Positions 6,974-51,420 of a DNA stretch of 64,000 bases are shown here, piece by piece. Every line of letters begins with the position of its first letter. Position 1 is the first letter of the stretch. The stretch comes from an uncultured Gemmatimonadales bacterium (lineage in GTDB: Bacteria; Gemmatimonadota; Gemmatimonadetes; Gemmatimonadales; JACORV01). A program made the translations under genes and the position numbers. Under the pieces are notes generated by a model. It was not told the origin of the DNA. It made no database searches and worked only from the letters and a program-made list of their open reading frames with translations. The stretch spans positions 31,223-95,222 of the forward strand of contig CAWDZR010000034.1 of the NCBI GenBank assembly GCA_963806755.1, read 5' to 3'.

Positions 6974-6979
6974 TCGTCT

Positions 6980-36418: not shown

Positions 36419-39178
36419 TCAGTCGGGCACGAGGAAGTGATACGTGCCGGCCTCGATCGCGTACACCGCGCGCCCGTCCCGCGCCTCCACGAGCGTCGCG
36501 CCGTCCGCGGTCACGGCCGCGGGCCGGTCCGTCGGCAGGACGACCCGGCCCGTGGTGTTCGCCGGGATGGTCACGGTGACCGCCACCGAACCGTCGGCGC
36601 GGCGGCGCCACGCGCTGGTGATGGGCCCGCGAATCGAGCGATAGACCGCGCGGACCGAGTCGAGCGGCGCGGTCCATCGGGGCCGGATCTCGATCCGGTC
36701 GAACGCGACGGCACCCGAGTCCTCCGCGATGCCCGCCAGGTACCCGTACAGCCACTCCCCCACGGTGCCGAACGCGTAGTGGCTGTAGGAGTTCATGCCC
36801 GGATCGCCGTGGTCGCCGTTCCAACGCTCCCACGTCGTGGTCGCGCCGTGCCGCACCTCGTAGAGCCAGGACGGAAACGATTCCTGGAGCAGGAGGCGGA
36901 ACGCCACGGAGTCCTCGCCGGCCTCGGACAGCACCGGCAGGACGTAGGCGCTGCCGAGGAACCCGGTCGTCAGGTGCCAGCCGTGGGCCGCGATGTCGTC
37001 CACGAGGCGGCGGGCCGCCGCCGGGCGCAGCGAGTCCGGCACGAGACCGAACCGCAGCGCGAGCACGTAGCCCGTCTGCGTGAAGGTGGTGCGGATGCTG
37101 TCGGGGTTCAGGTACGGCGCGCCCACCCGGCCGTCGGGGAGGACATAGGCGCTGTCGAACGCGGCGCGGACCCGTGCCGACAGCCGCGCGTATGCCGCGG
37201 CCGCCGAGTCCCGGCCGAGCGCCCGGGCCATCTGCGCCATCAGGGACGCGTCGTACGCCCACAGCGCGGTGCTGATCAGGTCGGCGTTGGTCTGGCCCCA
37301 CGACGTCGTGCTCCCGGCGGGGAGCCAGTCGCCGAATTGCACCTGCTTGCCGTGCAGCCACCGGTAGCCGGGATTCGAGTCGGCGATGAAGGCCAGGTAG
37401 CGCACCATCGCGCTCCAGTTCTCGTCCAGGATCCGGGTGTCGCCGTACTGCCGCCACGCCGTCCAGGGGATGATCACGCCGGCGTCGGCCCAGCCCGGCG
37501 CGCCGCAGGTCAGCACGCCGAGGAAGTTCGGCGCGAAGTTCGGGAAGCAGCCGTCGGCGTCCTGGCCGTCGCGGATGTCGGCGAGCCACTTCTCGCCGAA
37601 CGCCGCCATGTCCATGTTGTAGCTCGCGGTGCGCCAGAACACCTGCGCGTCTCCCATCCATCCCATCCGCTCGTCGCGCTGCGGGCAGTCGGTCGGCACG
37701 CCGTACAGGTTGGCGCGCTGCGTCCAGAGGATGTTCTCCCACAGGCGGTTCACGCCGGCATCCGAGGTCGCGAACGTGCCCGTCTCCGGCAGCGCGCTGT
37801 GCACGACGATCCCGGTGACGGCGTCCAGGGCCGGCACGCCGGGATATCCCGTCACCTCGATGTAGCGGAAGCCGTGGTAGGTGAAGTGCGGCTCGAAGGT
37901 CTCCGGGCCGCCGCCGCTCAGCACGTACGTGTCGGTGGCCTTCGCGCTCCGCAGGTTGATCTGCGTGACGTTCTTTCCGTCCGGCGCGAGGATTTCGGCG
38001 AAGCGCATCCGCACGACCGTGCCGAGCTTGCCGCGCACCACCAGCCGGGCCCAGCCGGCGATGTTCTGCCCGAGGTCGAAGACCCAGACGCCCGGTGCCG
38101 GTGACCAGCGCCGCACGGGACGGATCTGCGCCGTCCGCTCGATGGACGGGATGTTCTGCGACTGGAGCGCCGCGGCGGGCGGCGGCTCCACCACCACGCC
38201 GTGCCAGGCGCGGGCGTCGAAGCCGGGCCGGTCCCATCCCGGCTGCTCGAGCCGCGCGTCGTAGGTCTCGCCGTCGTAGATCTCGGAGACCAGCACCGGG
38301 CTCGACGCCGCGCGCCACGTGGTATCGGAGCCGATCACTTCCTCCCGCCCGTCCGCGTAGGTCACCACCAGCTCGAGCAGCAGCCGGACCGGCGGCGGCC
38401 CGAACGCGTAGCGCTTCGTGGAGAAGCCCATCGGGCTCGCGTACCAGCCCGCGCCGAGCAGCACGCCGACCGCGTTCGCGCCGGGGCGCAGCAGCCGGGT
38501 GACATCGTAAGCCTGGTAGGTCAGGCGATAGCGGTAGTCAGTCCAGTCGGGCGCCAGCGCTTCGGGGCCGGCCGCGCGGCCGTTGACGGTGACGCGGTAG
38601 CCGCCCAGGGCGGTCGCGTAGATCCGGGCGCGCACGGGCGTGGCGCGCAGCGCGAAGGCGCGGCGCAGCATCGGCGCCGTGCCCGCAGCGGTCTCGGGAG
38701 CGCCCGCGCCGATGCGGGCGGCCGTGTCGAGCGGCGCCGCGGAGGCGGCGATCCAATCCGCGCGCCAGGGCTCGCCCATCAGCCCCGTCTCCCACCAGGC
38801 GGCGGGGGCGCATGGCGCCGCGCGGCCGCCCCGGTCCCGGAGGCATACGGTCCACCAGTAGCGGCTCCGCGGTCGGAGCGGCGCGCCGGCGTACGTCACG
38901 TCCACGGTCGCGTCGGCCGCCACGACCCCGCTGTCCCACACGTCGGCACGACCGGGCGCCAGCCGCGACGGCGCCGTCGCGACCAGGATGCGGTAGGCGC
39001 TCTCCCGGGCGCCGCGCCGCGCGTCGGCCATCTGCCAGGAGAACCGCGGGCGCGCGGCGTCGATGCCGATGGGCGTCACGAGATGCTCCACCTCGAGGGC
39101 CACGGCGCGGGCCGGGGAGGCCGGGCGGCCGCCGCCGGGGCCGGCGATCACGGAGAGCAGGGCGAGCAGCGCGAGCAT
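36419..39178 (-). CDS. alpha-L-rhamnosidase (GH78), secreted
   Basis: ATG at 39178 (MLALLALLSV). N-terminal GIDAARPRFSWQ...YRILVA motif and an (alpha/alpha)6 catalytic region (WMGDAQVF, GATTTWERW). Confidence 0.9.
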   Translation of the reverse strand: MLALLALLSVIAGPGGGRPASPARAVALEVEHLVTPIGIDAARPRFSWQMADARRGARESAYRILVATAPSRLAPGRADVWDSGVVAADATVDVTYAGAPLRPRSRYWWTVCLRDRGGRAAPCAPAAWWETGLMGEPWRADWIAASAAPLDTAARIGAGAPETAAGTAPMLRRAFALRATPVRARIYATALGGYRVTVNGRAAGPEALAPDWTDYRYRLTYQAYDVTRLLRPGANAVGVLLGAGWYASPMGFSTKRYAFGPPPVRLLLELVVTYADGREEVIGSDTTWRAASSPVLVSEIYDGETYDARLEQPGWDRPGFDARAWHGVVVEPPPAAALQSQNIPSIERTAQIRPVRRWSPAPGVWVFDLGQNIAGWARLVVRGKLGTVVRMRFAEILAPDGKNVTQINLRSAKATDTYVLSGGGPETFEPHFTYHGFRYIEVTGYPGVPALDAVTGIVVHSALPETGTFATSDAGVNRLWENILWTQRANLYGVPTDCPQRDERMGWMGDAQVFWRTASYNMDMAAFGEKWLADIRDGQDADGCFPNFAPNFLGVLTCGAPGWADAGVIIPWTAWRQYGDTRILDENWSAMVRYLAFIADSNPGYRWLHGKQVQFGDWLPAGSTTSWGQTNADLISTALWAYDASLMAQMARALGRDSAAAAYARLSARVRAAFDSAYVLPDGRVGAPYLNPDSIRTTFTQTGYVLALRFGLVPDSLRPAAARRLVDDIAAHGWHLTTGFLGSAYVLPVLSEAGEDSVAFRLLLQESFPSWLYEVRHGATTTWERWNGDHGDPGMNSYSHYAFGTVGEWLYGYLAGIAEDSGAVAFDRIEIRPRWTAPLDSVRAVYRSIRGPITSAWRRRADGSVAVTVTIPANTTGRVVLPTDRPAAVTADGATLVEARDGRAVYAIEAGTYHFLVPD

Positions 39179-39328
39179 GCGACGGACCTCGAAGGAGTCG
39201 CCGCTCAAGCTACCCCCGCGCGCCGGCCACGTCACGGATCGGCACGCGATTTTCGCGCGGGCTCCGCCCGCCGGCCGGGGCGGCTGCGCTGTCCACCCGC
39301 GGTTGCCGCCGTCGGCCGCGGCACGTAT

Positions 39329-39342
39329 TGTGCATATGCACA
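39329..39342. promoter_or_regulatory. Perfect 14-bp palindrome TGTGCATATGCACA, 18 nt upstream of the DUF134 gene
   Basis: The palindrome is self-complementary as read. It sits in the only AT-rich patch of the 39179-39359 divergent spacer. Confidence 0.5.
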
Positions 39343-39359
39343 TAACTGACGGAGCGTCC

Positions 39360-39665
39360 ATGCCGCGACCGAGGAAGCGACGCCGGTGCCGCCGGTTCGA
39401 GGGAGACCGGGTCTTCAAGCCCCGCAGCATCCCCATGCCGGAATTGTCGGTGGTGCGGCTGGCGCTGGACGAGCTGGAGGCGATGCGGCTGTGCGACGTG
39501 GACGGTCACGACCAGGAGGCGGCCGGAGCGCGGATGGGCGTATCCCGCGGCACGGTGCAGCGGCTGGTGGCGTCGGGACGCGCCAAGGTGATCACGGCGC
39601 TCGTCGAGTCCGCCGCACTCATCATCGAAGGAGGAGAGCGTGAAGCTGTGTATCCCCACGGTTGA
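39360..39665 (+). CDS. DUF134-family putative DNA-binding protein
   Basis: MPRPRKRRRC..F.P...P...V.L..DELEA.RL.D..G..QEEAA..MGVSR.T..R pattern (sigma-70 region-4-like HTH). Confidence 0.8.
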   Translation: MPRPRKRRRCRRFEGDRVFKPRSIPMPELSVVRLALDELEAMRLCDVDGHDQEAAGARMGVSRGTVQRLVASGRAKVITALVESAALIIEGGEREAVYPHG

Positions 39666-40056
39666 AAGCGCAGGTCTCCACGGGCGGATGTCGGGCCATT
39701 TCGGCAGCGCCCCGTTCTTCACGATCGTGGACACCGAGTCGGGAGCGTGCGAGGTGATGGCGAACGGCGGCGCCGTGCACCAGCACGGCGCGTGCGAGGC
39801 GGCCGGCGGCATGGAGGGTCACGCCGTGGACGCCGTCGTGTGCCGGGGACTGGGCCGGCGCGCGCTGGCCGGGCTGGCCGCGGCCGGGATCGCCGTGTAC
39901 GTGGCGGACGCGGAGGACGCGGCTGCCGCGCTCGCGCAGTATCGCGCGGGGAGCCTGTCGCCCATGGCCGAGGCGGCGGCGTGCCACGGCGGTGCGGGGC
40001 ACGCGCACGGGCCCCACGGTGCGGACGGGTGCGGACACGGGCCGGGCGGCCACTGA
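39640..40056 (+). CDS. NifX/NifB-C-terminal-like (dinitrogenase FeMo-cofactor-binding fold) protein with a Cys/His/Gly-rich tail
   Basis: GTG at 39640 follows GAAGGAGGAG and overlaps DUF134 by 26 nt. Core motif HFGSAPFFTIVD. The tail is CHGGAGHAHGPHGADGCGHGPGGH. Confidence 0.8.
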   Translation: MKLCIPTVESAGLHGRMSGHFGSAPFFTIVDTESGACEVMANGGAVHQHGACEAAGGMEGHAVDAVVCRGLGRRALAGLAAAGIAVYVADAEDAAAALAQYRAGSLSPMAEAAACHGGAGHAHGPHGADGCGHGPGGH

Positions 40057-40175
40057 CGACAGCCGGTCCGCTTTTTGCTTCTCGGGGTGGCGGCCGGCGC
40101 CGCACGCCCAGGGCGCCGGGCGCGGCCGCCCGCACGAGGGCGCCGCGAACGGAGCCACCACCGGGAGAGAGTCAC

Positions 40176-40649
40176 ATGGCCGAAAGCGCCAGCCGGATCG
40201 CGATCATCGCGGGTCACGGCACCCTCGACGCGGCGTACCCGCCGCTCATCCTCGCCACCGCGGCCGCCGCCATGGACATGGAAGCGGCCATCTTCTTCAC
40301 CTTCTACGGTCTCGAGATCCTCAAGAAGGGCAACGCCGACCGCCTCATGGTCGCGCCGATCGCCAACCCGGCCATGCCGGTGCCCGTGCCCAACATCCTC
40401 GGGATGCTGCCCGGCATGACCGCGGCCGCGACCATGATGATGAACGGCTGGATGAAGAAGGCCCACGTCCTCAAGCCGAGCCAGCTGCTGGCGCAGGCGC
40501 AGGAGCTGAACGTCAAGCTCATCGCCTGCGAGATGACCATGAACGTGCTGGGCATCAAGCGCGATCAGCTGATCGACGGCATCACCGTGGCCGGCGCCGC
40601 GTCGTTCCTGTCGTTCGCCAGCGAGAACGCGATCACGCTCGCCTTCTAG
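40176..40649 (+). CDS. DsrE/DsrF/DsrH-like (DsrE3-type) sulfur-carrier family protein
   Basis: IAIIAGHGTLD...AAIFFTFYGL...KLIACEMTMNVLGIKRDQL pattern with the conserved Cys. Confidence 0.8.
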   Translation: MAESASRIAIIAGHGTLDAAYPPLILATAAAAMDMEAAIFFTFYGLEILKKGNADRLMVAPIANPAMPVPVPNILGMLPGMTAAATMMMNGWMKKAHVLKPSQLLAQAQELNVKLIACEMTMNVLGIKRDQLIDGITVAGAASFLSFASENAITLAF

Positions 40650-40842
40650 TCGCGGCCGCCGGCGCGGCGGCGCGACCGCCGCTCCGCGCGCCGCCCCGCG
40701 CCAAAGCGTCCCGTCCCGCCGCCGCCGCCGCGCCGCCGCCGCCGCACGCTGCGGCGGCGCTTCGGCTTTCCAACCGCTTCCCCGCCAATACGTCATGCCC
40801 GCCGGTCGAACGCCCGTTCGGAGATTGTCCGCAGGCGGCATA

Positions 40843-40866
40843 GCATTTGCGAACATTCGCAAATGC
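40843..40866. promoter_or_regulatory. Perfect 11-2-11 inverted repeat (ArsR/SmtB-type operator) overlapping the ArsR start codon
   Basis: GCATTTGCGAA-ca-TTCGCAAATGC; the ATG at 40863 lies inside the right arm. Confidence 0.65.
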
Positions 40867-41243
40867 GGAAGTTCAACACTCTCCGGGAGGCCGCGGTGCC
40901 CAAGGTCGACATCTTCGAGCTGCATGCCGAGGCCTGCAAGACCATCGCGCACCCCACGCGCCTGAAGATCCTCGCCCTCCTCGGCCGCCGCGAGATGAAC
41001 GTCGGCGAGCTGGCCGAGATCATCGGCGTGCCGATGCCGAACATCAGCCAGCACCTCACGGTGCTGAAGTCCGGCGGGCTGGTCCGCGCGCGCAGGGAGG
41101 GAGCCTCCATGCACTACCGGCTCGCCGACCGCCGCATGATCCAGGCGTGCACGCTGATCCGGTCGGTGCTGCTCGACCGCATGAAGGAGCGCGGACTGGC
41201 CGCGCAGAAGGTGGATCCCCGGTACGTCGTGTTCGCCGCGTAG
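40863..41243 (+). CDS. ArsR/SmtB-family transcriptional repressor with two cysteines (C25, C96)
   Basis: HPTRLKILALL...NVGELAEIIGVPMPNISQHLTVLKSGGLV winged-HTH signature. Confidence 0.9.
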   Translation: MRKFNTLREAAVPKVDIFELHAEACKTIAHPTRLKILALLGRREMNVGELAEIIGVPMPNISQHLTVLKSGGLVRARREGASMHYRLADRRMIQACTLIRSVLLDRMKERGLAAQKVDPRYVVFAA

Positions 41244-41284
41244 CCGCGGCGCACTCACCCGCAGCACCAGGAGGCAACGGCCCC

Positions 41285-41536
41285 ATGGCACTGGATCTGG
41301 CGACGGTCAAGGCGGTGAAGACGGTGGACGCGCGGGGCACGGCGTGCCCCGGCCCCCTGCTCGAGGCCAAGCGCGCCATCGCGGCGGTCCCGGTCGGCGG
41401 CATCATGGAGGTGCTCTCCTCCGACGCCGGCACCAACGAGGACATCCCGCTGTGGGCGAAGAAGGTCGGCCACGAGTACCTCGGCAGCACCGAGGAGGCC
41501 GGCTACTGGCGGCTGTTCGTGAAGCGGGGCAAGTAG
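41285..41536 (+). CDS. tusA: TusA/SirA-family sulfurtransferase
   Basis: DARGTACPGPLL (CPxP active-site motif), 83 aa, AGGAGG upstream. Confidence 0.85.
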   Translation: MALDLATVKAVKTVDARGTACPGPLLEAKRAIAAVPVGGIMEVLSSDAGTNEDIPLWAKKVGHEYLGSTEEAGYWRLFVKRGK

Positions 41537-41985
41537 TGACCGCAGCGCCGGTGGCCCCCGCCACCACCCGGGACCCCGCCGCCCGCGGCGCGCCGCGGCC
41601 GAAGATCCTGGTCTTCTCGACCACCAACATCTCGGACCCGGGCATCGACCTGGCGGGCAGCCAGCATCTCGAGTACGCCCCCACGATCAAGGTCGTCAGC
41701 GTGCCGTGTTCCGGCGGGATCAACCCCAGCTGGATCGCCCACGCCATCGCGTCCGGGTTCGACGGCGTGTTCGTCGCCGCCGACGGCGGCGACTGCGCCT
41801 ACCTCCCCGATTGCACCGCGCGCACCGCCAGGACCGTGGAGCGCGCGCAGGCGCTGCTCAAGGAGCGCGGCCAGGACCCGCGGCGGGTGAAGATGGCCGC
41901 GATCTGCTCGGTGTGTTCAGAGCCGTTCGTCTCGCACATGAAGCAGTTCGGAGAGGCGCTGGGGAAGCTGCAGGGTGAGAGGTGA
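41536..41985 (+). CDS. MvhD/FlpD-like (methyl-viologen-reducing hydrogenase delta subunit family) protein
   Basis: GTG start overlaps the tusA stop (TAGTG). Pattern is KILVFSTTNISDPGIDLAG...VSVPCSGGI...GFDGVFVAADGGDCAY. Confidence 0.8.
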   Translation: MTAAPVAPATTRDPAARGAPRPKILVFSTTNISDPGIDLAGSQHLEYAPTIKVVSVPCSGGINPSWIAHAIASGFDGVFVAADGGDCAYLPDCTARTARTVERAQALLKERGQDPRRVKMAAICSVCSEPFVSHMKQFGEALGKLQGER

Positions 41986-42069
41986 GGAGTGAGAGGTGAG
42001 ACGGGTAGGTGAGAAGTGAGAGGGGGAGCGGCGTGAGAGGGGGAACGGCGTGAGAGGGAGAGCGGCGTG
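41974..42069 (+). repeat. Purine-rich tandem repeats: ~7 heptamers (GGTGAGA-type), then 3 x 17-bp units ending in the hdrA GTG start
   Basis: The 17-bp units are GTGAGAGGGGGAGCGGC (42016-42032), GTGAGAGGGGGAACGGC (42033-42049) and GTGAGAGGGAGAGCGGC (42050-42066). GTGAcc follows at 42067, which is the CDS start. Confidence 0.85.
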
Positions 42070-44847
42070 ACCGACGCGAAATCCGACTGCGACGTCCTGA
42101 TCGTGGGCGGCGGCATCGCCGGCATGGAGAGCGGCCTGACCCTGGGCGACATGGGCTACAAGGTCGCCCTCGTCGAAAAGGAGCCCTCGGTCGGCGGGAA
42201 GATGATCCTGCTGAGCAAGGTCTTCCCGACCCTCGATTGCGCCTCCTGCATCTCCACGCCGAAGATGGCCGCCGTCTCGCACCACCCCAACGTCACGGTC
42301 CACATCTCGAGCGGGGTGGAGCGGATCACCCCGCGCGGCGACGGCACGTTCACCGCCGAGCTGGTACACAAGCCGACCTTCGTGGATCCGGCGGCGTGCA
42401 CGGGCTGCCAGGACTGCGAGCGCGCGTGCACCGTCGCCATCCCCGACCGGTTCAACGCCGACCTCGTGGCGACCCGCGCCGCCCACATCGCCTTCCCCCA
42501 GGCTGTGCCGAAGAAGGCCGTCATCGAGCGGGCGGGCACCTCGCCCTGCTCGTTCGCGTGCCCCGCGGGCGTCAAGGCGCATGGCTACGTCTCGCTGGTG
42601 CGCGCCGGGAAGTACGAGGAGGCGTTCCGGCTGCACATGGAAGACGCGCCGATTCCCGGCAGCCTCAGCCGCGCCTGCTACGCCCCGTGCGAGGGGGAGT
42701 GCACGCGCGGCGAGGTCGAGGGCACCGTCTCGATCCGCGGCATCAAGCGCTTCATGGTGGATTGGTATTACGACCGCCACCCCGAGCCGGAATACGGCCC
42801 GGCGGCGGACCGGCGCGGCAAGCGCGTCGCCGTCGTCGGCTCCGGGCCGGCCGGACTCTCGGCGGCCTACTTCCTCGCCCGCGGCGGCTACGACGTCACG
42901 GTCTTCGAGTCCGCCGCCGAGGCCGGCGGCATGCTGCGCCACGGCATCCCGCCCTTCCGGCTCCCCCGCGCGATCGTGGACCGCGACATCAAGAACGTCA
43001 CGGCACTCGGCGTGGAGATCCGCACCGGCGCGCCCGTCGCGTCCGTCGCCTCGCTCGCCGCCCAGGGCTTCGACGCGACCTTCCTCGCCCTCGGCACGAT
43101 GGAGGGCCAGACGATGGACGTGCCGGGCCGCGAGCTGGCGGGCGTCCTGGACTCCATGGAGCTCCTCGAGGCGGCGAACCTGGGCCGCGAACTGGACCTC
43201 GCCGGCAAGCGCGTCGCCGTCATCGGCGGCGGCAACGTCGCGATCGACTCGGCGCGGATGGCCCTGCGCCTCGGCGCCGCCGATGTCGCGATCTGGTACC
43301 GCCGCACCCGGAAGGAGATGCCGGCGCACGACTTCGAAGTGCAGGCGGCGCTGGACGAGGGGATCGCGCTGCACGAGCTGCGGACGCCAGCGCGGTTCGT
43401 CGGCGAGAGCGGGAAGCTGACGGGCGTCGAGTGGCAGGCGATGAAGCTCGGCGAGCCCGACGCCAGCGGCCGACGGCGTCCGGTGCCGGTGTCCGGCTCC
43501 GAGACGGTCCGTCCCGCGGACGTCGCGGTGCTCGCCATCGGGCTCTCGCCCAGCACCGGTCCGTTCGCGGCGGAGCTGGCGCTCCGGAACAACGGCACCA
43601 TCACGGCCGACCGCGAGACGCTGGCGACCTCCCGGCCCGGCGTGTTCGCCGGCGGCGACGCCGTGAGCGGGCCATCGATGATCATCGAGGCCGTGGCGCA
43701 GGGAAAGCGCGCCGCGTTCTACATCGACCGCTACCTGCAGGGCCGGCCGCTCGACGGCCTCACGTTCGACGCCCGGCTGCCGGTGGTGGCGCGGCAGGCG
43801 GTGCTCGGCCGCACCTCGACCGGGCCGGAGTCCCGGCCGCCCGCGGCCGCGCACGACACCGAGGCCGCCGCCCGCGCCCGCTCGCTCGCGGAGATCGAGC
43901 ACACGATGAGCGAGGACGAGGCCCGCTACTGCGCGAGCCGCTGCCTCGACTGCGGCGTGTGCTCCGAATGCCACGAGTGCGTGGCGGCCTGCCCGGCGGG
44001 CGCGATCCGGCTCGACCAGCGCGAGACGCGGGAAACGCTGCACGCCGCCTCGGTGCTCGTGGCCACCGGCTTCCAGCTGTTCGACGCGAAGCGGAAGCCC
44101 ACCTACGGCTTCGGGACGCTGCCCAACGTCATCACCGCGATGCAGATGGACCGGATCCTCGCGCCCACCCGGCCCTACAACGCCGTGGTCCGCCCCTCCG
44201 ACGGCAAGGCGCCGGCGAACGTGGCGTACGTGCTGTGCACCGGCTCGCGCGACTGCACGGTGGACAACCGGCTCTGCTCGCGGGTCTGCTGCATGTACTC
44301 GATCAAGCAGGCGCAGCTGTTGATGGGCGCGCTGCCGCTGGCCGACATCACGATCTACTACATCGACATCCGCGCCTTCGGGAAGGGCTACGAGGAGTTC
44401 TTCCAGCAGGCGAAGGGGATGGGCGTGCGGTTCGTGAAGGGCCGCGTCGCGAAGATCGAGGGCGCGGCGGACGGCGACCTCACCGTCCTCTACGACGACA
44501 TCGAGGGCACGGGCCGCACGGCGCGGGCCGGGCACGACCTGGTGGTCCTCTCCGTGGGGCTCTCGGCGAACCCGGAGGCGTTCGGGCTGTTCGCTCCGGG
44601 GCAGCTCCAGGCGGACGAGTTCCGCTACGTGAAGGAGCCGGACGAGGACCTCGAGCCGGGGAAGACGAGCCTGGAGGGCGTGTTCGTCGCCGGCACGGCC
44701 TCCGCCATCAAGGACATTCCGGACACGATCCTGCACTCGGGAGCCGCGGCGGCGCAGGTGGCCGCGTACCTGCGGCGGCGCTCCGCCGGGGTCGGCGCCG
44801 GCGCGCCGGCCGCCCTCGCGGCGGCGGGCGGCGGGGGGGCCCGATGA
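42067..44847 (+). CDS. HdrA-like flavoprotein with an embedded GltD/NfnB-type NAD(P)H:FAD module (926 aa)
   Basis: The HdrA N-terminal half has DVLIVGGGIAGM, CASCIS and CTGCQDCERAC. The insert spans aa ~158-560 (nt ~42538-43746) and carries CSFACPAG...ACYAPCEGEC, VAVVGSGPAG, VAVIGGGNVAID and GVFAGGD. The HdrA C-terminal half has CLDCGVCSECHECVAACP and CTGSRD...CSRVCC. Confidence 0.9.
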   Translation: MTDAKSDCDVLIVGGGIAGMESGLTLGDMGYKVALVEKEPSVGGKMILLSKVFPTLDCASCISTPKMAAVSHHPNVTVHISSGVERITPRGDGTFTAELVHKPTFVDPAACTGCQDCERACTVAIPDRFNADLVATRAAHIAFPQAVPKKAVIERAGTSPCSFACPAGVKAHGYVSLVRAGKYEEAFRLHMEDAPIPGSLSRACYAPCEGECTRGEVEGTVSIRGIKRFMVDWYYDRHPEPEYGPAADRRGKRVAVVGSGPAGLSAAYFLARGGYDVTVFESAAEAGGMLRHGIPPFRLPRAIVDRDIKNVTALGVEIRTGAPVASVASLAAQGFDATFLALGTMEGQTMDVPGRELAGVLDSMELLEAANLGRELDLAGKRVAVIGGGNVAIDSARMALRLGAADVAIWYRRTRKEMPAHDFEVQAALDEGIALHELRTPARFVGESGKLTGVEWQAMKLGEPDASGRRRPVPVSGSETVRPADVAVLAIGLSPSTGPFAAELALRNNGTITADRETLATSRPGVFAGGDAVSGPSMIIEAVAQGKRAAFYIDRYLQGRPLDGLTFDARLPVVARQAVLGRTSTGPESRPPAAAHDTEAAARARSLAEIEHTMSEDEARYCASRCLDCGVCSECHECVAACPAGAIRLDQRETRETLHAASVLVATGFQLFDAKRKPTYGFGTLPNVITAMQMDRILAPTRPYNAVVRPSDGKAPANVAYVLCTGSRDCTVDNRLCSRVCCMYSIKQAQLLMGALPLADITIYYIDIRAFGKGYEEFFQQAKGMGVRFVKGRVAKIEGAADGDLTVLYDDIEGTGRTARAGHDLVVLSVGLSANPEAFGLFAPGQLQADEFRYVKEPDEDLEPGKTSLEGVFVAGTASAIKDIPDTILHSGAAAAQVAAYLRRRSAGVGAGAPAALAAAGGGGAR

Positions 44848-46580
44848 GCGCGAAGAAGATCGGCGCCTTCATCTGCCACTGCGGCGGCAACATCTCCGAC
44901 TTCGTGGACGTGGAGCAGGTGCGGGCCGCGGCGGAGAAGGAAGCCGGAGTGGCGGTGGCCAAGACCTTCCTGTTCGCGTGCTCCGACGCGGCGCAGCAGG
45001 AGATGGAAGCCACCATCAAGGCCGAGGGGCTCGACGGGATCGTCGTCGCGTCGTGCTCGCCGAAGCTGCACCTCTCGACCTTCCGGGCGATGGCGCAGCG
45101 GGCCGGCTTGAACCCGTACATGTACACGCAGTGCAACGTGCGCGAGCAGTGCTCGTGGGCGCATCGCCACGCGACGGGGCCGGCGACGGCCAAGGCCACG
45201 GACCTCGTCCGGGCCGGCGTCGCCCGCACGCGGCTCGGCAGCCCGCTGACCGAGCTGCGGATCGAGACGACGCAGGCGGCGATCGTGATCGGCGCCGGCG
45301 TGGCGGGGATGCGGGCCGCGCTCGCCCTCGCCGACATGGGCGTCGCGGTGTACGTCGTCGAGCGCGCCGCCGAGGTGGGCGGGCGTATCCCGGCGTGGGG
45401 AAAGCTCTTCCCCAACGACCGCGACGGCGCCGACCTGGTGGCGACGCTGCGGCGCGAGCTGGCCACGCGAGAGAACGTCACCCTGCTGCTCGAGGCCGAG
45501 GTCGTCGAGAAGCGCGGGACCGTCGGGGACTTCACGGTGACCGTACGCGCCGGGAACGACACCCTGTCCTTGCACGTCGGCGCCATCGTCGTCGCCACCG
45601 GCTTCGACCCGTACGCACCGGCCGAGGGCGAGTTCGGCTACGGCCTTCCGGGCGTCGTGACCCTGCCCGAGTTCCGCGAGCTGCTGGCCCGGAACGGCCG
45701 CCCGCGCCGCTCCGACGGCCGGCCCGCGCGGACCATCGCCTACATCTACTGCGTGGGGAGCCGCCAGGCCGAGTCCGAGGCGTGCCCGAAGCCGAACCGC
45801 TACTGCTCGCGGTACTGCTGCAATGCGGCCGTGCACACCGCGCTCCTGGCCCGCGCCACGGCGGGTGGCGAGGCGATCGACCAGTACCACCTCTACCGCG
45901 ACATGCGGACGTACGGGAAGAACGAGTTGCTCTTCGAGGAGGCGGGGCGGAAGGGCTCCGTCTTCCTCCGCTTCGCCGACGACGCGCCGCCGGCGGTCGA
46001 GCGCGACGGCGAGGGCCTCCGCGTCCGGGTAAAGGACACCCTGATGACGGGCGAGGAGGTGGAGATCCCCGCCGACCTCGTGGTGCTGGTCACGGGGATG
46101 GTCCCGCGCGAAAACGCGACGCTGCTGCAGGCGCTGAAGCTCCCGCTCGATGCCGGCGGATTCTTCAACGAGATCCACCCCAAGCTGCGGCCCGTCGAGA
46201 CGGTGATCGACGGCGTGTTCATCGCCGGCACGGCGCAGGGCCCGAAGTCGCTGGCGGAGAGCGTGGCCAGCGGGCTCGCGGCCGTGTCGAAGGGCGCCGC
46301 GCTGCTGCTCAAGGGCTACGTGGACCTGCCCCCGCTGGTGGCGAGCGTGGACGCGGCGCAGTGCACCTGGTGCGGCGAATGCGCCGCCGCCTGCCCCTAC
46401 GAGGGCGCGGTCGAGAAGGTGCGGGTCGGCTCGAAGGAAGTCGCCACCATCCACGCCGAGCTGTGCAAGGGGTGTGGCGGCTGCGTGCCGGTGTGCGCCA
46501 GCGAGGCGATCGACCTCGCGGGCTACAGCAACGCGCAGATGCGCGCGATGATCGAGGCCCTGGCCGTGGAGGCCGCGTGA
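44844..46580 (+). CDS. HdrA-type flavoprotein with canonical architecture (N-terminal Cys domain, TrxR-like FAD domain, C-terminal 2x[4Fe-4S])
   Basis: ATGA overlap with the upstream gene. Motifs are FICHCGGNIS, AIVIGAGVAGM, CVGSRQ...CSRYCC, CTWCGECAAACP and CKGCGGCVPVC. Confidence 0.9.
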   Translation: MSAKKIGAFICHCGGNISDFVDVEQVRAAAEKEAGVAVAKTFLFACSDAAQQEMEATIKAEGLDGIVVASCSPKLHLSTFRAMAQRAGLNPYMYTQCNVREQCSWAHRHATGPATAKATDLVRAGVARTRLGSPLTELRIETTQAAIVIGAGVAGMRAALALADMGVAVYVVERAAEVGGRIPAWGKLFPNDRDGADLVATLRRELATRENVTLLLEAEVVEKRGTVGDFTVTVRAGNDTLSLHVGAIVVATGFDPYAPAEGEFGYGLPGVVTLPEFRELLARNGRPRRSDGRPARTIAYIYCVGSRQAESEACPKPNRYCSRYCCNAAVHTALLARATAGGEAIDQYHLYRDMRTYGKNELLFEEAGRKGSVFLRFADDAPPAVERDGEGLRVRVKDTLMTGEEVEIPADLVVLVTGMVPRENATLLQALKLPLDAGGFFNEIHPKLRPVETVIDGVFIAGTAQGPKSLAESVASGLAAVSKGAALLLKGYVDLPPLVASVDAAQCTWCGECAAACPYEGAVEKVRVGSKEVATIHAELCKGCGGCVPVCASEAIDLAGYSNAQMRAMIEALAVEAA

Positions 46581-46849
46581 GCGCGCCCGCGACGCCCCGC
46601 GCTCCCGCCGAGATCATGCGGGACGAGATGGTGATGCGCCCGAAGATCCTCGCGGCGCTCGCCGACGGGCCGAAGACCATCCCCGAAATCGCGGACGCGC
46701 TCGGCGCGCCGGCCCCGGAGGTCACGCTCTGGGTCATGGCGCTGCGCCGCTACGGGGCGCTGGAGGAGATGCCCAAGCCGAAGGCGGAGGACTACTACAG
46801 GTACCTGGCGGCGGGCACGGGGGCACAGGGGCACGGGGGCACGGAGTAG
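46577..46849 (+). CDS. small hypothetical protein (77-90 aa), possibly winged-helix-like
   Basis: High GC3. A GTGA overlap start is at 46577, with an alternative ATG at 46616. Has KILAALADGPKTIPEIADALG, and the 3' end is built from GGGGCACR repeats. Confidence 0.65.
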   Translation: MSAPATPRAPAEIMRDEMVMRPKILAALADGPKTIPEIADALGAPAPEVTLWVMALRRYGALEEMPKPKAEDYYRYLAAGTGAQGHGGTE

Positions 46850-46897
46850 GCGGGCACTGAGGACTGGGGTCTAGGGGCTAGGGGTTAGGGCTTAGGG
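46813..46897 (+). repeat. G-tract array (GGGGCACR x4, then GGGG-TCTA-GGGG-CTA-GGGG-TTA-GGG-CTTA-GGG) on the coding strand between the small gene and the qmoC-like gene
   Basis: Read directly from the sequence; it satisfies the G3+N1-7 x4 G-quadruplex motif. Confidence 0.8.
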
Positions 46898-46912
46898 ACA
46901 CACGAGGCGAAC

Positions 46913-48046
46913 ATGGCGGTGAGGCTGGATCCGGGGTTGCATCGCGAGATCGCGAAGTACGGCGGCGGGGACGTCACCGCGTGCATGAACTGCGGCAACT
47001 GCACGGCGACCTGCCCGCTCTCGACCGACACGCAGGGCTTCCCGCGGCAGATCATCCACCTGCTCCAGGTGGGCAACCGTGAGAGGCTGCGGACGTCGCT
47101 CGAGCCGTGGCTGTGCTACTACTGCGGCGAGTGCTCGGAGACGTGCCCGCGCGACGCGAACCCCGCCGAGACGATGATGGCCGCGCGCCGCTGGCTCACC
47201 GGCCAGTACGACTGGACCGGGATCGGCGGGCGGATCTACGCCTCGAAGTGGGTCCAGCTGGCCGCGGTGCTCCTCGTGGGGCTGGCGATCGCCGGCCTGT
47301 TCGTGCTGCTGCACGGCCCCGTGGTGACCACCACCGTAGCGCTCAACACCTTCGCGCCGGTGGAATGGGTCGAGCGCGCCGACTGGATCATGGCCGGCAC
47401 GCTCTCGATCCTGCTGCTCTCCAACGTGTGGCGCATGTACCGCTTCGTCATGCGCCCGGTGACCGGCGCGGCGATCCCGGTCGGCGTCCTGGTGCGCGAA
47501 GCGAAGACATTCGTCCTCCACTTCGTCACGCAGATGCGCTGGCGCGCCTGCACGACCAGCCGGTTCCGGTGGCTCAAGCACCTGCTCCTGGTGAGCGGCT
47601 ACGTCACGATGATGGTGCTGGTCGAGGTCTTCCTCCGCGCGTTCCAGACCGACCAGGTCGTCCCGTTCTGGCACCCGACGCGGCTGTTCGGCTATTACGC
47701 GACCGCCGTGATCCTCTACGGCACGGGAGACTTCATCGTCGGGCGCATCCGCAAGGGCGACTGGATCCACAAGCACTCGCACTTCAGCGACTGGGTGTTC
47801 GTGGGGCTGCTGTTCCTGGTCGCGCTGACCGGGATCCTGGTCCACATCGCGCGCGTCTCCGGGCACCCGATCGCCACCTACGACCTCTACGTGATCCACC
47901 TCGCCGTGGTGGCCCCGTTCCTGATTCTGCAGGTCCCGTTCGGCAAGTGGAGTCACATGTTCTACCGCCCCTTCGCGATGTACCTCGATGCGGTGCGGAA
48001 CCGGTTGCAGGCCGCCGCGGCCCCGGCGCTGGAGCGCGCGGCGTGA
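46913..48046 (+). CDS. QmoC-like fusion: HdrC-type 2x[4Fe-4S] domain plus HdrE/DsrM/NarI-type membrane di-heme b domain
   Basis: CMNCGNCTATCP and CYYCGECSETCP, then 6 TM helices with conserved His residues and FGKWSHMFYRP. Confidence 0.85.
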   Translation: MAVRLDPGLHREIAKYGGGDVTACMNCGNCTATCPLSTDTQGFPRQIIHLLQVGNRERLRTSLEPWLCYYCGECSETCPRDANPAETMMAARRWLTGQYDWTGIGGRIYASKWVQLAAVLLVGLAIAGLFVLLHGPVVTTTVALNTFAPVEWVERADWIMAGTLSILLLSNVWRMYRFVMRPVTGAAIPVGVLVREAKTFVLHFVTQMRWRACTTSRFRWLKHLLLVSGYVTMMVLVEVFLRAFQTDQVVPFWHPTRLFGYYATAVILYGTGDFIVGRIRKGDWIHKHSHFSDWVFVGLLFLVALTGILVHIARVSGHPIATYDLYVIHLAVVAPFLILQVPFGKWSHMFYRPFAMYLDAVRNRLQAAAAPALERAA

Positions 48047-48063
48047 ACCTCAAGGAGACAGCC

Positions 48064-48438
48064 ATGCCGGAGACCAACGAAGAGAAGATCGTCGTCATCG
48101 CCACCCACGGCGCCGAGGACCCCGAGCGGGCCACGCTGCCGTTCGTCGTGGCGAATGCGGCGCAAGCGATGGACACCAAGGCCGTGGTGATCCTCCAGGG
48201 GTACGCGGTCACGCTCGCGACGCCGGGTGTGTACGAGCACGTGTTCGCATCCGGCATGCCCGCCCTCAAGGAGCTCGTGGACGGCTTCCTGAAGCAGGGC
48301 GGCGAGTTGCTGGTCTGCACGCCGTGCATCAAGTCCAGGCAGATCGCGCCGGAAACGCTCATTCCCGGCGGCAAGCCCATCGCAGCCGCACGGGTCGTGC
48401 AGGAATGTCTCGAAGCGAAGGCCACGCTGAACTACTGA
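48064..48438 (+). CDS. DsrE-family sulfur-relay protein
   Basis: AAGGAGA upstream. Pattern is KIVVIATHGAEDPERATLPF...LLVCTPCIKSRQI. Confidence 0.8.
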   Translation: MPETNEEKIVVIATHGAEDPERATLPFVVANAAQAMDTKAVVILQGYAVTLATPGVYEHVFASGMPALKELVDGFLKQGGELLVCTPCIKSRQIAPETLIPGGKPIAAARVVQECLEAKATLNY

Positions 48439-48469
48439 CGGGGCGCCGGGCGACACCCGGGCACTCCCC

Positions 48470-49933
48470 ATGAAAGGCGCGAAATCCATGCAACACAGAC
48501 TCGTTTCGGGATTCGTCGTGGCGCTCGGCCTCGCGGGCGCCGGCGCCGCCACGGCCCAGACCGCCGGCTATCTCCTCCCCTGCTCGTCCGCGTCGCAGCT
48601 GGGGCGCGGGTGCACGCTGCTCGCCGCGCAGGGCGACTTCTCCACCATCCTGGGCGACCCGGCCGCGCTGGCCGGACTCGGCGCGCGCGGCCTCACCGTC
48701 AGCGGCGCCGCGTTCATGCCCTCGCTGCACTACGCCAACGCGCTGAACCCCGGCCAGGACGGCAAGAACAACGTGTTCCCGATGCCGGCCGTGTTCTTCG
48801 CCGACCGGCAGCGCGGCCCGGTGACGCTGGGCCTCGGCGCGCAGACCATCGGCGGCATGGGCGCGGACTACTCGCTCGCCAACGCCGTGCTCGGCGCCGC
48901 GCAGCGCTACCACTCCAAGGTGGCCCTGATGAAGGGCGGCCTCGCCGCGGCGGTGCTGGTCGGTTCGAAGCTCTCGGTGGGCGCGATGGTGGGCGCCCTC
49001 TACGGCCAGCTCGAATTCGCGACGCCGTACAGCCTCAATCCCATGAGCCTCGCCGGCATGGCGGGCCTGGCCGCGGACCCGAGCTACGCCACGATGATGC
49101 AGAGCTTCACCGAGGCCACGGCCTACACCAACCTCACCGGCCTGACGGGCTTCGGCCTCACCGGCGGCCTGAGCGTGCACTACCAGCCCACGAGCGCGAT
49201 GACCGTCGCCCTCGCGTGGACCCCGGCGACCACGCTGACGCTGAGCGGCGGCACCGCGACGATGGACATGAACGCCCAGTTCGGGCTGCTCTACCAGGGC
49301 ATGGTCGCCGCGAAGGGCAGCGCCGCCGCCGTGAACGCCCAGCTGGCGGGTTTCGGCATCAACATGGCCAACGGCATGGCCACGAGCTTCCAGGCGGAGA
49401 CCGACTTCGGCATTCCGCAGACGCTGACGCTCGCCGTCGGCTTGCGCCCGTCCGACCGGCTGAGCGTCGGCGTGGACCTCGGGTGGATCGGCTACGCCAG
49501 CGCCTTCAAGACGATGCCGATGCGGATGACCGGCGGCACCAACGCCAACATCAACATCCTCATGAACGCGTCACCGACGAACGGCACCTTCGCCACGGCG
49601 TGGCCGCTCGACTGGAAGGACAGCTGGGTCGCCCGGGCCGGGGCCGAGTACGAGTTGACGCCGGCGCTGGCGCTCAGGGCGGGCGGGATCTACGGCTCCA
49701 ACCCGGTGCCGAGCAACACGCTGTTCACCATCTTCCCGGCCGTGGCCGAAGCCGCCGCGACGGTGGGTGTCGGATACCGGATGGGCAACGCCACGCTCGA
49801 CCTGGGCTACGCCCACACGTTCACCAACACGCAGACCGGCGCCACGCCGAGCCTGGTCGCGCAGGAGTACGCCGGCGCCACGAGCAGCCTCGGCGAAGAC
49901 CAGCTTTCGGCCGGCGTCACCTGGCGGTTCTAG
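48470..49933 (+). CDS. outer-membrane beta-barrel, FadL/OmpP1/TodX-like
   Basis: Signal peptide (AGAATAQ), alternating amphipathic beta-strands and a terminal ...GVTWRF aromatic residue. Confidence 0.7.
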   Translation: MKGAKSMQHRLVSGFVVALGLAGAGAATAQTAGYLLPCSSASQLGRGCTLLAAQGDFSTILGDPAALAGLGARGLTVSGAAFMPSLHYANALNPGQDGKNNVFPMPAVFFADRQRGPVTLGLGAQTIGGMGADYSLANAVLGAAQRYHSKVALMKGGLAAAVLVGSKLSVGAMVGALYGQLEFATPYSLNPMSLAGMAGLAADPSYATMMQSFTEATAYTNLTGLTGFGLTGGLSVHYQPTSAMTVALAWTPATTLTLSGGTATMDMNAQFGLLYQGMVAAKGSAAAVNAQLAGFGINMANGMATSFQAETDFGIPQTLTLAVGLRPSDRLSVGVDLGWIGYASAFKTMPMRMTGGTNANINILMNASPTNGTFATAWPLDWKDSWVARAGAEYELTPALALRAGGIYGSNPVPSNTLFTIFPAVAEAAATVGVGYRMGNATLDLGYAHTFTNTQTGATPSLVAQEYAGATSSLGEDQLSAGVTWRF

Positions 49934-49978
49934 CGTCTCGCTCGTGGGCGGGCGCAGCCCTCGGGCCGCGCATGCCAC

Positions 49979-50015
49979 GAAGCCCCGATCCGGCGCTCTG
50001 CCGGGTCGGGGCTTC
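49979..50015 (+). terminator. Rho-independent-type terminator after the outer-membrane barrel gene
   Basis: GAAGCCCCGAtCCGGC-gctct-GCCGGgTCGGGGCTTC followed by ggtgttt. Confidence 0.55.
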
Positions 50016-50069
50016 GGTGTTTCCGGCTCTGACGTCGGATCGCGCCCGGCGCAGGCCGGGCGCTGAGCG

Positions 50070-50549
50070 TCAGCTCGCCGCGCCCTCCGTCTGGTTGGCC
50101 AGGTAGTTGGGCAGGCCCATCTGCTCGATCTGGTCCCGCTGCGCCTCGGCCCAGTCCACGTGGCCCTCTTCCATCTTCAGGATCTTGGTGAGCAGCTCGA
50201 CCGTGCCGTTGTCGGACGACTCGCGGGCCAGCTTGATGCCCGCGTTGTAGGCCTTCACGGCGCCCAGCTCGTCCCCTTCATCGTTGCTGATCATTTCGGG
50301 AACGCTCTTGCCGATCTTCATCGGGTTGAGCTTGCTGACGACGGGTGAACCGTCCAGGAAGATGATGCGCTGAATGAGCCACTCGGCGTGGTGCATCTCG
50401 TCCATCGCCTGCTTCTCGATGGCGGCGTGCAGCTTGGGGTAGCCCCAGTTCTCGCACATCTCGGAGTGCACCATGTACTGGCTGATGGCCGTCAGCTCGT
50501 CGGCCAGGAGCTGGTTCAGGACCGTCAGCATCTGATCGTTACCCTTCAT
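50070..50549 (-). CDS. bfr: bacterioferritin
   Basis: Start MKGNDQMLTVLNQLLADELTAISQYM follows GGGAGG. Ferroxidase E/H ligands are present (DEMHHAEW, MEEGHVDW). A hairpin follows the stop at 50042-50063. Confidence 0.9.
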   Translation of the reverse strand: MKGNDQMLTVLNQLLADELTAISQYMVHSEMCENWGYPKLHAAIEKQAMDEMHHAEWLIQRIIFLDGSPVVSKLNPMKIGKSVPEMISNDEGDELGAVKAYNAGIKLARESSDNGTVELLTKILKMEEGHVDWAEAQRDQIEQMGLPNYLANQTEGAAS

Positions 50550-50808
50550 CTCGGCCTCCCATGTCATCCTTCAGGTATCCCGCCCGTGCGGGCGCCCCGA
50601 GTATAGTGCCGATCTCGGCATCCCGGATGGCCTGAACGTACGCAAACGACGGGCCGCAGGAAACGTGACCTGACACGTCGGAATTCGAGCGACGCCAGGA
50701 AGCCTGCGGCCAGGAGCCTCACGGGCCGCGACGGCTCAGCCGCCGGCACGTCGCGCTTGCGTCTGGGGCCGTCGCTGGTCAGACTTTGCTCCTCCCCCAG
50801 CCACGGAG

Positions 50809-51330: not shown

Positions 51331-51348
51331 CGCTTCGGCACGAAGACG

Positions 51349-51379
51349 AAGGGCGCCCGACCGGTGGCCGGGCGCCCTT
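51349..51379. terminator. Bidirectional hairpin terminator between convergent genes
   Basis: AAGGGCGCCCG-accggtggc-CGGGCGCCCTT is a perfect 11-bp stem, followed by ggctttcgtggtt. Confidence 0.6.
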
Positions 51380-51420
51380 GGCTTTCGTGGTTGCGTTCCG
51401 TCAGGACGCTGTGCCGGGCC

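Follow-up and report, generated by a model that had tools for sequence, protein, structure and literature searches.

A conserved Qmo/Hdr-type operon with a nested NADPH-type module and TusA/DsrE sulfur carriers in a Gemmatimonadales genome and in related loci

The subject of this work is a cluster of twelve plus-strand genes at positions 39360–49933 of a 64,000-nucleotide stretch of DNA from an uncultured Gemmatimonadales bacterium (contig CAWDZR010000034.1); the whole 64-kb stretch is called the window below. In order, the genes encode a DUF134 protein, a NifX-like protein, a DsrE2-type sulfur carrier, an ArsR/SmtB-family repressor, the sulfur carrier TusA, an MvhD-like subunit, a flavoprotein of the HdrA type with an NfnB/GltD-type module inside it, designated HdrA(NfnB), a second HdrA-type flavoprotein, designated HdrA', a small winged-helix protein, a QmoC-like subunit, a carrier of the DsrE family, and a FadL-type outer-membrane channel. 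With a G+C content of 72%, open reading frames (ORFs) alone say little in this window; therefore, the coding frames were assigned by third-position GC content (GC3). This analysis upheld the succession of twelve genes that an earlier note had read from the letters alone, and Pfam profile searches bore out each of its domain calls. The overlapping stop and start codons were also recovered, namely TAGTG (41534–41538) between tusA and the mvhD-like gene, ATGA (44844–44847) between the two hdrA genes, and GTGA (46577–46580) between hdrA' and the winged-helix gene. A divergent gene for an alpha-L-rhamnosidase (36419–39436, minus strand) and a convergent ferritin-like gene (50070–50567, minus strand) flank the cluster. 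As these opposed genes stand on both sides, the whole transcription unit lies inside the window; thus, an hdrB/CCG, aprAB, or lbpA gene of the same unit beyond the window, a possibility raised in the earlier note, was ruled out.

Related loci were searched for with the proteins of the window, and the 80 best loci together with 5 others (n = 85) were compared; in addition, GTDB was scanned with one genome per species. The survey included the mvhD / hdrA-gltD / hdrA / qmoC order for which neighbourhood mining had been proposed, and the order of the genes proved near-invariant: [arsR]-[dsrE/dsrE2]-tusA-mvhD*-hdrA(NfnB)-hdrA'-wHTH-X-[dsrE], where mvhD* is the mvhD-like gene, wHTH is the gene of the small winged-helix protein, and X is either a QmoC-like gene or hdrC plus hdrB. 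In the window, dsrE2 comes first and is followed by arsR-tusA-mvhD*-hdrA(NfnB)-hdrA'-wHTH-qmoC-like-dsrE. The conserved unit thus comprises about nine of the twelve genes, and its order is kept across bacteria and archaea, in at least ten phyla. Confirmed matches of the HdrA(NfnB) fusion protein were found in at least 551 GTDB species genomes, and in public data the protein forms more than 120 clusters at ≥65% identity. Among the 85 loci, the closest were those of other Gemmatimonadota (81–91% identity). The other carriers belong to the Acidobacteriota, the Alpha-, Beta-, and “Delta”-proteobacteria, Chloroflexota, Bacillota, Bacteroidota, Verrucomicrobiota/Kiritimatiellales, the archaeal Thermoplasmata, and the Actinomycetota, which include the isolate Propionicimonas sp. 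T2.31MG-18. Most of these organisms live as heterotrophs or anaerobes and are not known to oxidise sulfur.

This conservation bears on the simplest alternative, that unrelated modules came to lie side by side by chance and that the twelve genes form no functional system. Neither DUF134/NifX nor FadL shares the conservation of the other genes, and gaps of 119 and 213 bp precede dsrE2 and arsR, respectively; against this stand the same order of nine genes in different domains of life and the overlapping codons at the tusA-mvhD and hdrA-hdrA'-wHTH junctions. Synteny has therefore largely refuted a chance origin for the nine-gene core, where we regard it as extremely improbable, and the explanation holds only for DUF134/NifX. 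By the same evidence, the view of all twelve genes as one unit was given up, since only about 7 of the 85 loci have DUF134 and/or NifX in the vicinity of the cluster, FadL adjoins it in six lineages, and the 213-bp gap separates arsR from the genes before it.

Both flavoproteins belong to the HdrA family, and the sequences that they matched best were HdrA/HdrA2 chains (E = 1e-88 to 1e-137), which came closer than any Qmo model. HdrA(NfnB) (42067–44847, plus strand, 926 amino acids) aligned with methanogen HdrA over the FAD domain only and had neither the N-terminal domain nor the C-terminal ferredoxin domain. Its residues 115–640 matched chains of the NfnB/GltD type (E = 1e-55 to 1e-111), and the domains PF14691 (Fer4_20) and PF07992 (Pyr_redox_2) were identified inside it. 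The best PDB matches of this module were 9bov_A (“molybdopterin oxidoreductase”), 9n5u_A (NfnA), and 8oh5_C, which was deposited as a formate dehydrogenase subunit and which we take to be StnA. These matches confirmed that a GltD-type NAD(P)H module is nested in HdrA; the module (2x[4Fe-4S], FAD) lies between the two CxxCxxCxxxC motifs of the inserted ferredoxin domain of HdrA. All cluster cysteines of HdrA(NfnB) were kept in at least 99% of 85 homologues, and the YRR motif (Y411, R412, R413) was invariant. In NfnB and DsrL-2, YRR contacts the 2'-phosphate of NADP(H) (PMC7596348); its invariance indicates that the module of HdrA(NfnB), by prediction, is of the NADP(H) type.

HdrA' (44844–46580, plus strand, 578 amino acids; HdrA by Pfam) aligned with HdrA 5odc_A over residues 3–234 and 317–649 (E = 9e-116) and contained the N-terminal cluster domain, the FAD domain, and the C-terminal 2x[4Fe-4S] ferredoxin domain. 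The inserted ferredoxin domain, equivalent to residues 241–316 of 5odc_A, was absent, as was the DCxxC of the FPTxDCxxC motif; the protein had been called a canonical HdrA, of which the family assignment stands and the word “canonical” does not. The cluster cysteines were invariant in both paralogues. Because the domain sets of HdrA(NfnB) and HdrA' are complementary, a heterodimer is to be expected, and the two proteins probably form a flavin core like that of QmoA/QmoB.

The QmoC-like subunit (46913–48046, plus strand, 377 amino acids) consists of a 2x[4Fe-4S] domain followed by a hydrophobic membrane domain. It matched the NCBIfam model of qmoC (NF038018) end to end, over positions 6–358 of 360 (E = 3.9e-53), with a score of 181 bits, which is under the equivalog cut-off of 300. 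Together with the HdrA chain matches, this profile match substantiated the Qmo-like composition of two HdrA paralogues and an HdrC-membrane fusion. HdrC chains were the best PDB matches of the N-terminal domain, and the eight cysteines of its two cubane-cluster motifs were kept in 97–99% of the sequences. In the membrane domain, His223, His329, and His348 were invariant and, with His203, are candidate haem ligands; the fourth histidine occupies position 203 in the subclade of the window, and members of the other subclade have it on a different helix. A reciprocal His/Glu swap between two membrane helices was also observed: the subclade of the window has Glu154 and His203, and the other subclade has His and Glu at the same columns. 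This suggests that the two positions are neighbours in the fold of the QmoC-like protein and that either could supply a haem ligand.

The module at the end of the operon proved variable. Of the 85 loci, 47 were of the QmoC type and 24 of the HdrCB type, and 14 lay on contigs that end too early; HdrC and HdrB thus replace the QmoC-like subunit in 24 of the 71 complete loci. The HdrB of these loci keeps only one CCG motif, CX34CCX33CXXC. In the neighbour-joining tree of the HdrA(NfnB) fusion protein, loci of the QmoC and HdrCB types interleave, and one Verrucomicrobia metagenome-assembled genome (MAG), co234_bin56, carries both types (L075 and L077), each with a FadL/Toluene_X gene after it. The terminal module has therefore been exchanged repeatedly. 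For Qmo, the quinone-interacting membrane-bound oxidoreductase known from sulfate-reducing and sulfur-oxidising organisms, an alternative between QmoC and a soluble HdrCB has already been documented (PMC6397845; PMC10504309), and QmoAB is also known with HdrD.

In the 64-kb window itself, no CCG/HdrB protein was detected by a profile built from 23 HdrB sequences and run unfiltered on all six-frame ORFs (best E = 0.13), and a regular expression for the CCG motif matched 0 of the 579 ORFs. Pfam searches of essentially all genes of the window revealed no AprAB, Sat, lipoate-binding protein (LbpA), or DsrC, and no Etf was found among the window genes. The absence of aprAB/sat, HdrB/CCG, and a lipoate-binding protein from the window, reported before, was thus verified. 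As a defining trait, however, the lack of HdrB did not survive the comparison, both because of the HdrC and HdrB genes in about a third of the complete loci and because of L085, the closest relative (91% identity). In L085, genes for a DsrC (Cx10C), a 201-amino-acid membrane protein, and a DsrK/HdrD-like protein (Fer4_8 and CCG), the latter two resembling a DsrMK pair, lie directly upstream of the operon (3879–6125), at the place that DUF134-NifX occupy in the window; the absence of HdrB is accordingly local to the lineage of the window. The same trio was found in locus L043 of a Bacteroidetes MAG (5065–7339). Both L085 and L043 are QmoC-type loci without HdrB. DsrC alone was also seen at L030 and L054.

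The mvhD-like gene (41536–41985, plus strand, 149 amino acids) is a separate gene upstream of both flavoprotein genes. Its product matched FlpD (PF02662, E = 4e-29) with 101.5 bits against a Pfam gathering score of 22.3. Alignment with the solved MvhD chains 8rvu_F and 5odc_D placed S-T-T-N-I-S where these have an N-terminal CCxxC, so that the replacement of the Cys pair by S-T-T-N, suspected in the earlier note, was established. It is a trait of the whole family: CCxxC was lost in 81 of 81 members, which have S-T-(T/N)-N-I-S at this position. The five other cysteines (58, 87, 93, 124, and 127) were invariant (n = 81).

The operon thus resembles QmoABC in having two adjacent HdrA-like flavoproteins, an MvhD module, a QmoC with an HdrC domain and a haem-type membrane domain, and the exchange with HdrC plus HdrB. 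It differs in several respects. In Qmo, the MvhD domain forms the C-terminus of QmoB, whereas here it is a separate gene product without CCxxC; one flavoprotein contains a complete NfnB/GltD NADPH module, and an additional conserved winged-helix protein is encoded. Qmo is linked with AprBA/Sat, whereas the partners here are TusA/DsrE, sometimes with DsrC or a rhodanese, under ArsR. Moreover, the qmoC score remains below the NCBIfam equivalog cut-off. It may nevertheless be asked whether the complex is an ordinary Qmo, or “type II” Qmo, that serves APS reductase, either in sulfite oxidation or in the dissimilatory reduction of sulfate, the aprAB/sat genes lying elsewhere in the genome. The QmoC homology is consistent with this, some homologues have been named QmoC by JGI, and some sulfate reducers possess a type II Qmo that resembles HdrA (PMC10504309). 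However, aprAB/sat were found neither in the window nor beside the 5 relatives with Pfam-annotated neighbours, no recurrent Apr-like family occurred in the flanks of the 85 loci, the hosts include Bacteroidales, Propionibacteriaceae, Chloroflexia, and Thermoplasmata, and in every locus the partner within the operon is TusA/DsrE. We therefore consider a role as an ordinary Qmo improbable.

Neukirchen et al. (2023; PMC10504309) described type II Qmo as closer to HdrA, as present in organisms with or without Dsr/Apr, and as unclear in its role. The operon studied here shares with it the closeness to HdrA and the occurrence without Apr/Dsr, and by comparison of the descriptions the two families may overlap. 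In the searchable full-text literature, no published description of the operon was found, only cases of sHdr, Qmo, HdrL-Fdh, and CoADR-TusA-DsrE. The earlier assertion that the cluster matches no described architecture was thus partly retained: no description of the operon was found, but the exchange of QmoC and HdrCB and type II Qmo were already known. The operon is best regarded as a large, conserved, and apparently uncharacterised variant of the Qmo/Hdr kind, and not as a singular architecture.

The proposed link of the cluster to sulfane-sulfur carriers was supported by the conserved cysteines of TusA, DsrE2, and DsrE. Cys21 of TusA (41285–41536, plus strand; PF01206, E = 5e-22) was present in 100% of 79 sequences, and, with few exceptions among the loci, tusA is the gene immediately before the mvhD-like gene. 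The DrsE_2-family protein upstream of arsR (40176–40649, plus strand; PF13686, E = 2.3e-43) has its active-site Cys118 in 100% of 51 homologues; it scored 152 bits with the NCBIfam model of DsrE2 (cut-off 210), and its best PDB match was 2QS7. A dsrE2 gene stands upstream of arsR also in L003, L005, L085, and L086. For the downstream DsrE protein (48064–48438, plus strand; PF02635, E = 2e-13), the nearest PDB entry was DsrE3A (3MC3), the active-site cysteine of which aligned with Cys85, and the CxxC formed by Cys85 and Cys88 was kept in 95% of 20 homologues. Of the DsrE3/TusA pair named earlier, TusA was thus confirmed, whereas the upstream protein is DsrE2-like and not DsrE3; it is the downstream DsrE that comes nearest to DsrE3A. 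A gene of the DsrE family was present in almost every complete locus.

Genes related to sulfur metabolism also recur around the operon. CoADR-rhodanese proteins or single rhodaneses adjoin about 12 loci, and a cysteine-desulfurase-like Aminotran_5 gene lies upstream in L003, L043, L044, and L052. The other recurrent neighbours include TPMT/TehB-like and UbiE-like methyltransferases. A 505-amino-acid Aminotran_5 protein encoded in the window (28478–29995, minus strand), 10 kb off, is a homologue of the gene directly upstream of dsrE2-tusA in L003, L043, L044, and L052; it may be a cysteine-desulfurase-like sulfur donor for the carriers. In three loci of Chloroflexota (L034, L041, and L053), single-domain rhodaneses directly follow qmoC, and a second, divergent arsR-dsrE-tusA-dsrE set was observed on the minus strand, 3–8 kb downstream of the operon.

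The constancy of the carriers speaks against a reading independent of sulfur, according to which the complex is a bifurcating NADPH:ferredoxin/menaquinone oxidoreductase comparable to EtfABCX/Fix, in which NADPH oxidation would be split between quinone and ferredoxin and TusA/DsrE would serve only cluster or cofactor maintenance or regulation. In its favour are an HdrA-type flavin core, an NfnB module, and a QmoC homologue linked to quinone; ferredoxin might be served at the C-terminal ferredoxin domain of HdrA'. Such a reaction would be thermodynamically feasible, as it is for EtfABCX (PMC10734219). However, the position of tusA directly before the mvhD-like gene, which almost all loci share and which in the window goes with overlapping codons, the DsrE-family gene in almost every complete locus, and the recurrence of rhodanese, CoADR-RHD, and DsrC as neighbours make this reading unlikely.

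The repressor gene arsR (40863–41243, plus strand; HTH_20/HTH_5 by Pfam) encodes a member of the ArsR/SmtB family (NCBIfam NF033788, 88.9 bits, over the cut-off of 55). It was found in 47 loci, with Cys96 conserved in 83% and Cys25 in 45%. A persulfide sensor of the BigR/SqrR type was considered and rejected: the cysteine pair of helices alpha2 and alpha5 is absent, the Cys of the BigR motif LVCTL aligns with Ala, and the BigR equivalog score was 63 bits against a cut-off of 155. The start codon of arsR is overlapped by the palindrome ATTTGCGAACATTCGCAAAT (40844–40863), a perfect 9-2-9 repeat. L003 carries the same half-sites (TTGCGAAGTTTCGCAA) in the corresponding place, and L001 and L009 have palindromes of the TTCGAA type; as a single site, ATTTGCGAACATTCGCAAAT was statistically unexceptional in a scan of the window. 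It is a plausible candidate for the ArsR operator. The 213-bp gap between dsrE2 and arsR, with this operator-like palindrome, suggests that the main transcript starts before arsR. The gap begins with a very GC-rich, (GCC/GCG)n-like tract (40650–40790) and ends with an AT-rich island, in which the palindrome lies. Scans of 38800–50800 for promoter and terminator consensus sequences yielded nothing useful, and no RNA family was detected by an Rfam scan of 38500–51000.

The small protein encoded between hdrA' and the QmoC-like gene (46577–46849, plus strand, 90 amino acids) is free of cysteine and belongs to no Pfam or NCBIfam family. Its AlphaFold2 (AF2) model (pLDDT 82.7) had ArsR/SmtB/MarR folds as the best Foldseek matches (TM about 0.6). 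The protein was found in 70 loci and has 317 representatives at the 50% identity level; in some Bacteroidales, it is fused to HdrA'. A role as a second regulator was considered less likely in view of the position of the gene, its overlapping codons, and the fusion to HdrA', for which reasons we read the protein as a structural subunit. Its location between hdrA and hdrC is analogous to that of sHdrH.

Taken with the carriers, the domain composition leads us to propose that the operon encodes a three-port flavin/Fe-S complex in which NADPH drives the reduction of sulfane sulfur bound to the carriers, with coupling to the quinone pool and under the control of ArsR; we put the probability of this reading at about 50%. 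The two HdrA paralogues would form the core of the complex. Electrons would enter or leave through NADPH at the first port; the second would lead to the menaquinone pool through the QmoC-like subunit or, in the soluble variant, to a CCG-bound thiol/disulfide; and the third would consist of the altered MvhD together with the ferredoxin domain of HdrA', next to TusA. Since the operon keeps TusA/DsrE whichever of the quinone and CCG modules it has, the site of action of the carriers is most likely the conserved core rather than the high-potential end, which is exchangeable. A carrier-bound persulfide, polysulfide, or thiosulfonate would be reduced to sulfide with NADPH as the donor, and coupling to the quinone pool would proceed through the HdrA flavin, possibly by bifurcation. 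The system might serve sulfane-sulfur homeostasis or low-level sulfur respiration, and its expression might be switched on through the ArsR-type repressor at the palindrome on its own start codon. A reductive or homeostatic role fits the NADPH-type motif, the persulfide-reductase/rhodanese and DsrC/DsrK neighbours, and the heterotrophic or anaerobic hosts, none of which proves it.

The accessory genes can also be read in the opposite direction, as parts of an oxidative system similar to sHdr, in which sulfane sulfur delivered by TusA/DsrE would be oxidised and the electrons passed to NADP+ and menaquinone, or in which sulfide or thiol oxidation would be bifurcated to quinone and NADP+. The sHdr gene sets are shdrC1B1AHC2B2 or shdrC1B1AHB3-etfAB-emo, plus LbpA, and their accessory set of TusA, DsrE2, and DsrE3-like transferases (PMC11094781) is also present here; ArsR-type regulators are likewise nearby. 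Type II sHdr has been proposed to hand electrons to menaquinone (PMC11094781), and DsrC lies next to the operon in L085 and L043. On the other hand, LbpA and the pairs shdrC1B1/C2B2 are missing, whereas an NfnB insert, MvhD, and QmoC are present, and sHdrA (6TJR) matched far less well than methanogen HdrA did. A CCG site is entirely missing from the QmoC-type loci, and loci of the soluble type have a single CCG motif; the YRR/NADPH signature is associated with the reductive DsrL-2 enzymes (PMC7596348); and sulfur oxidation is not known from the hosts, most of which are heterotrophs and anaerobes. An oxidative function thus appears doubtful.

Several points weigh against sulfane-sulfur reduction by a three-port complex. 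For every member of the family, the support is at the level of sequence; which way the electrons run, and whether they are bifurcated, is read from the domain composition, and the sequence constrains neither. A QmoC-type complex would have no recognisable catalytic site for S-S bonds, since no CCG domain was found and no redox-active CxxC was identified in the flavoproteins beyond the cluster ligands. The MvhD-like protein may hold a cluster or may lack one, and persulfide sensing by ArsR is unproven, as the BigR/SqrR cysteine positions are absent and the N-terminal cysteine is 45% conserved. The QmoC-like protein of the window has Glu where 76% of the homologues have His, for which, judged from the alignment, the His on another helix appears to make up. 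It was not matched by Pfam Nitrate_red_gam at E ≤ 0.01, and its AF2 model (pLDDT 79) gave no significant Foldseek match of the membrane domain to a NarI/HdrE-type or other membrane protein, only HdrC chains being matched. Of the HdrC/HdrE fusion named in the earlier note, the HdrC domain and the homology to QmoC stand, and the HdrE part is tentative.

A more far-reaching version of the reductive proposal is that the complex is a new flavin-based bifurcating sulfur reductase. NADPH would be oxidised at the HdrA flavin, with a high-potential path to an exchangeable acceptor, menaquinone (QmoC) or a disulfide (HdrCB), and a low-potential path through the MvhD with altered cysteines to sulfur held by TusA/DsrE that NADPH alone reduces inefficiently, e.g., thiosulfonate or persulfide. 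We regard this as a speculative possibility of low probability. If true, it would represent an unrecognised energy-coupled route of sulfur reduction for soil and sediment heterotrophs of more than ten phyla.

HdrA-based complexes are model systems for flavin-based electron bifurcation, and Qmo holds a key place in the sulfur cycle, yet how it works mechanistically is still not understood. The operon connects an NADPH-fed HdrA/Qmo-type machine in a fixed manner with TusA/DsrE carriers in hundreds of species outside the classical sulfur specialists. If sulfane sulfur is reduced or otherwise processed by it, the operon would be an overlooked factor in the cryptic sulfur cycle of soils and sediments and in the homeostasis of reactive sulfur there. 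The natural exchange of QmoC and HdrCB offers a built-in comparison for the role of the high-potential branch, and cultured carriers, e.g., Propionicimonas sp. T2.31MG-18, make direct testing possible.

Comparison with the remaining known systems demonstrated further partial similarities. HdrABC-MvhAGD and HdrA2B2C2 share with the operon the HdrA/HdrA2 best matches, the HA4-type CxxxCC motif, the HdrC domain, and an MvhD-like subunit. However, the HdrA domains are split here over two polypeptides, unlike the single HdrA polypeptide of methanogens; HdrB has two CCG motifs there, for two non-cubane clusters, whereas none occurs in the window and one in the soluble variant; and, in contrast to HdrABC-MvhAGD, there is no hydrogenase in the operon and the donor module is of the NADPH type. 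FlxABCD-HdrABC differs in that the FlxA-type NAD(H) flavoprotein, FlxBC, and HdrABC are absent from the cluster, the NAD(P)H site of which is of the GltD/NfnB type. The modules of NfnB, GltD, DsrL, and StnA likewise combine Fer4_20 with FAD/NADPH domains and YRR, but here the module is nested in the inserted ferredoxin domain of HdrA, in an operon with TusA, DsrE, and QmoC. HdrL is the name given to the HdrA of Desulfobacterota with extra NAD(P)H domains (two NAD/FAD-binding domains); by its description it is set apart, as it occurs with Fdh or Wood-Ljungdahl genes and not with TusA/DsrE. Finally, the CoADR-RHD/Npsr persulfide and polysulfide reductases (e.g., Pcar_0429) also join a flavoenzyme driven by pyridine nucleotides to a TusA/DsrE persulfide relay; they are, however, unrelated single-polypeptide disulfide reductases without Fe-S clusters, a quinone link, or an HdrA flavin.

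The outer genes of the cluster are less constant. The first two encode a predicted DNA-binding protein of the DUF134 family (39360–39665, plus strand; PF02001, E = 2.3e-20) and a NifX/NifB-C-like Nitro_FeMo-Co protein (39640–40056, plus strand; PF02579, E = 4.6e-19) and are not a conserved part of the operon; in L085, a NifX-like gene lies downstream of FadL. The last gene encodes a FadL/Toluene_X outer-membrane channel with a signal peptide (48470–49933, plus strand; PF03349, E = 4.5e-24). FadL adjoins the cluster in the window and in L001/L002, L009, L075, L077, and L085, beside QmoC- and HdrCB-type modules alike; it recurs in Gemmatimonadota, Alphaproteobacteria, and Verrucomicrobia but is optional. 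The most widespread recurrent families in the flanks of the loci turned out to be shadow frames of dsrE genes, antisense or off-frame, in high-GC DNA and were discarded, and the other large flank clusters consisted of generic histidine kinases, ABC proteins, and sigma-54 activators.

On the 3' side of the cluster (50070–52035), DUF4440/SnoaL-like and cytochrome c genes are syntenic with positions 16199–17505 of L086, whereas the ferritin-like gene and FadL are not syntenic between the two loci, which points to local rearrangement around a stable core. At a distance from the cluster, a four-gene set for a cytoplasmic [NiFe]-hydrogenase was identified (2790–6776, minus strand, with 2297–3040), next to a gene for a cNMP-binding regulator. 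With its Fer4_22, NAD_binding_1/DHODB_Fe-S, Oxidored_q6 small, and NiFeSe_Hases large subunits, the set has the composition of the group 3b “sulfhydrogenase” type and is possibly a second NADPH- or sulfur-related redox system of the same genome.

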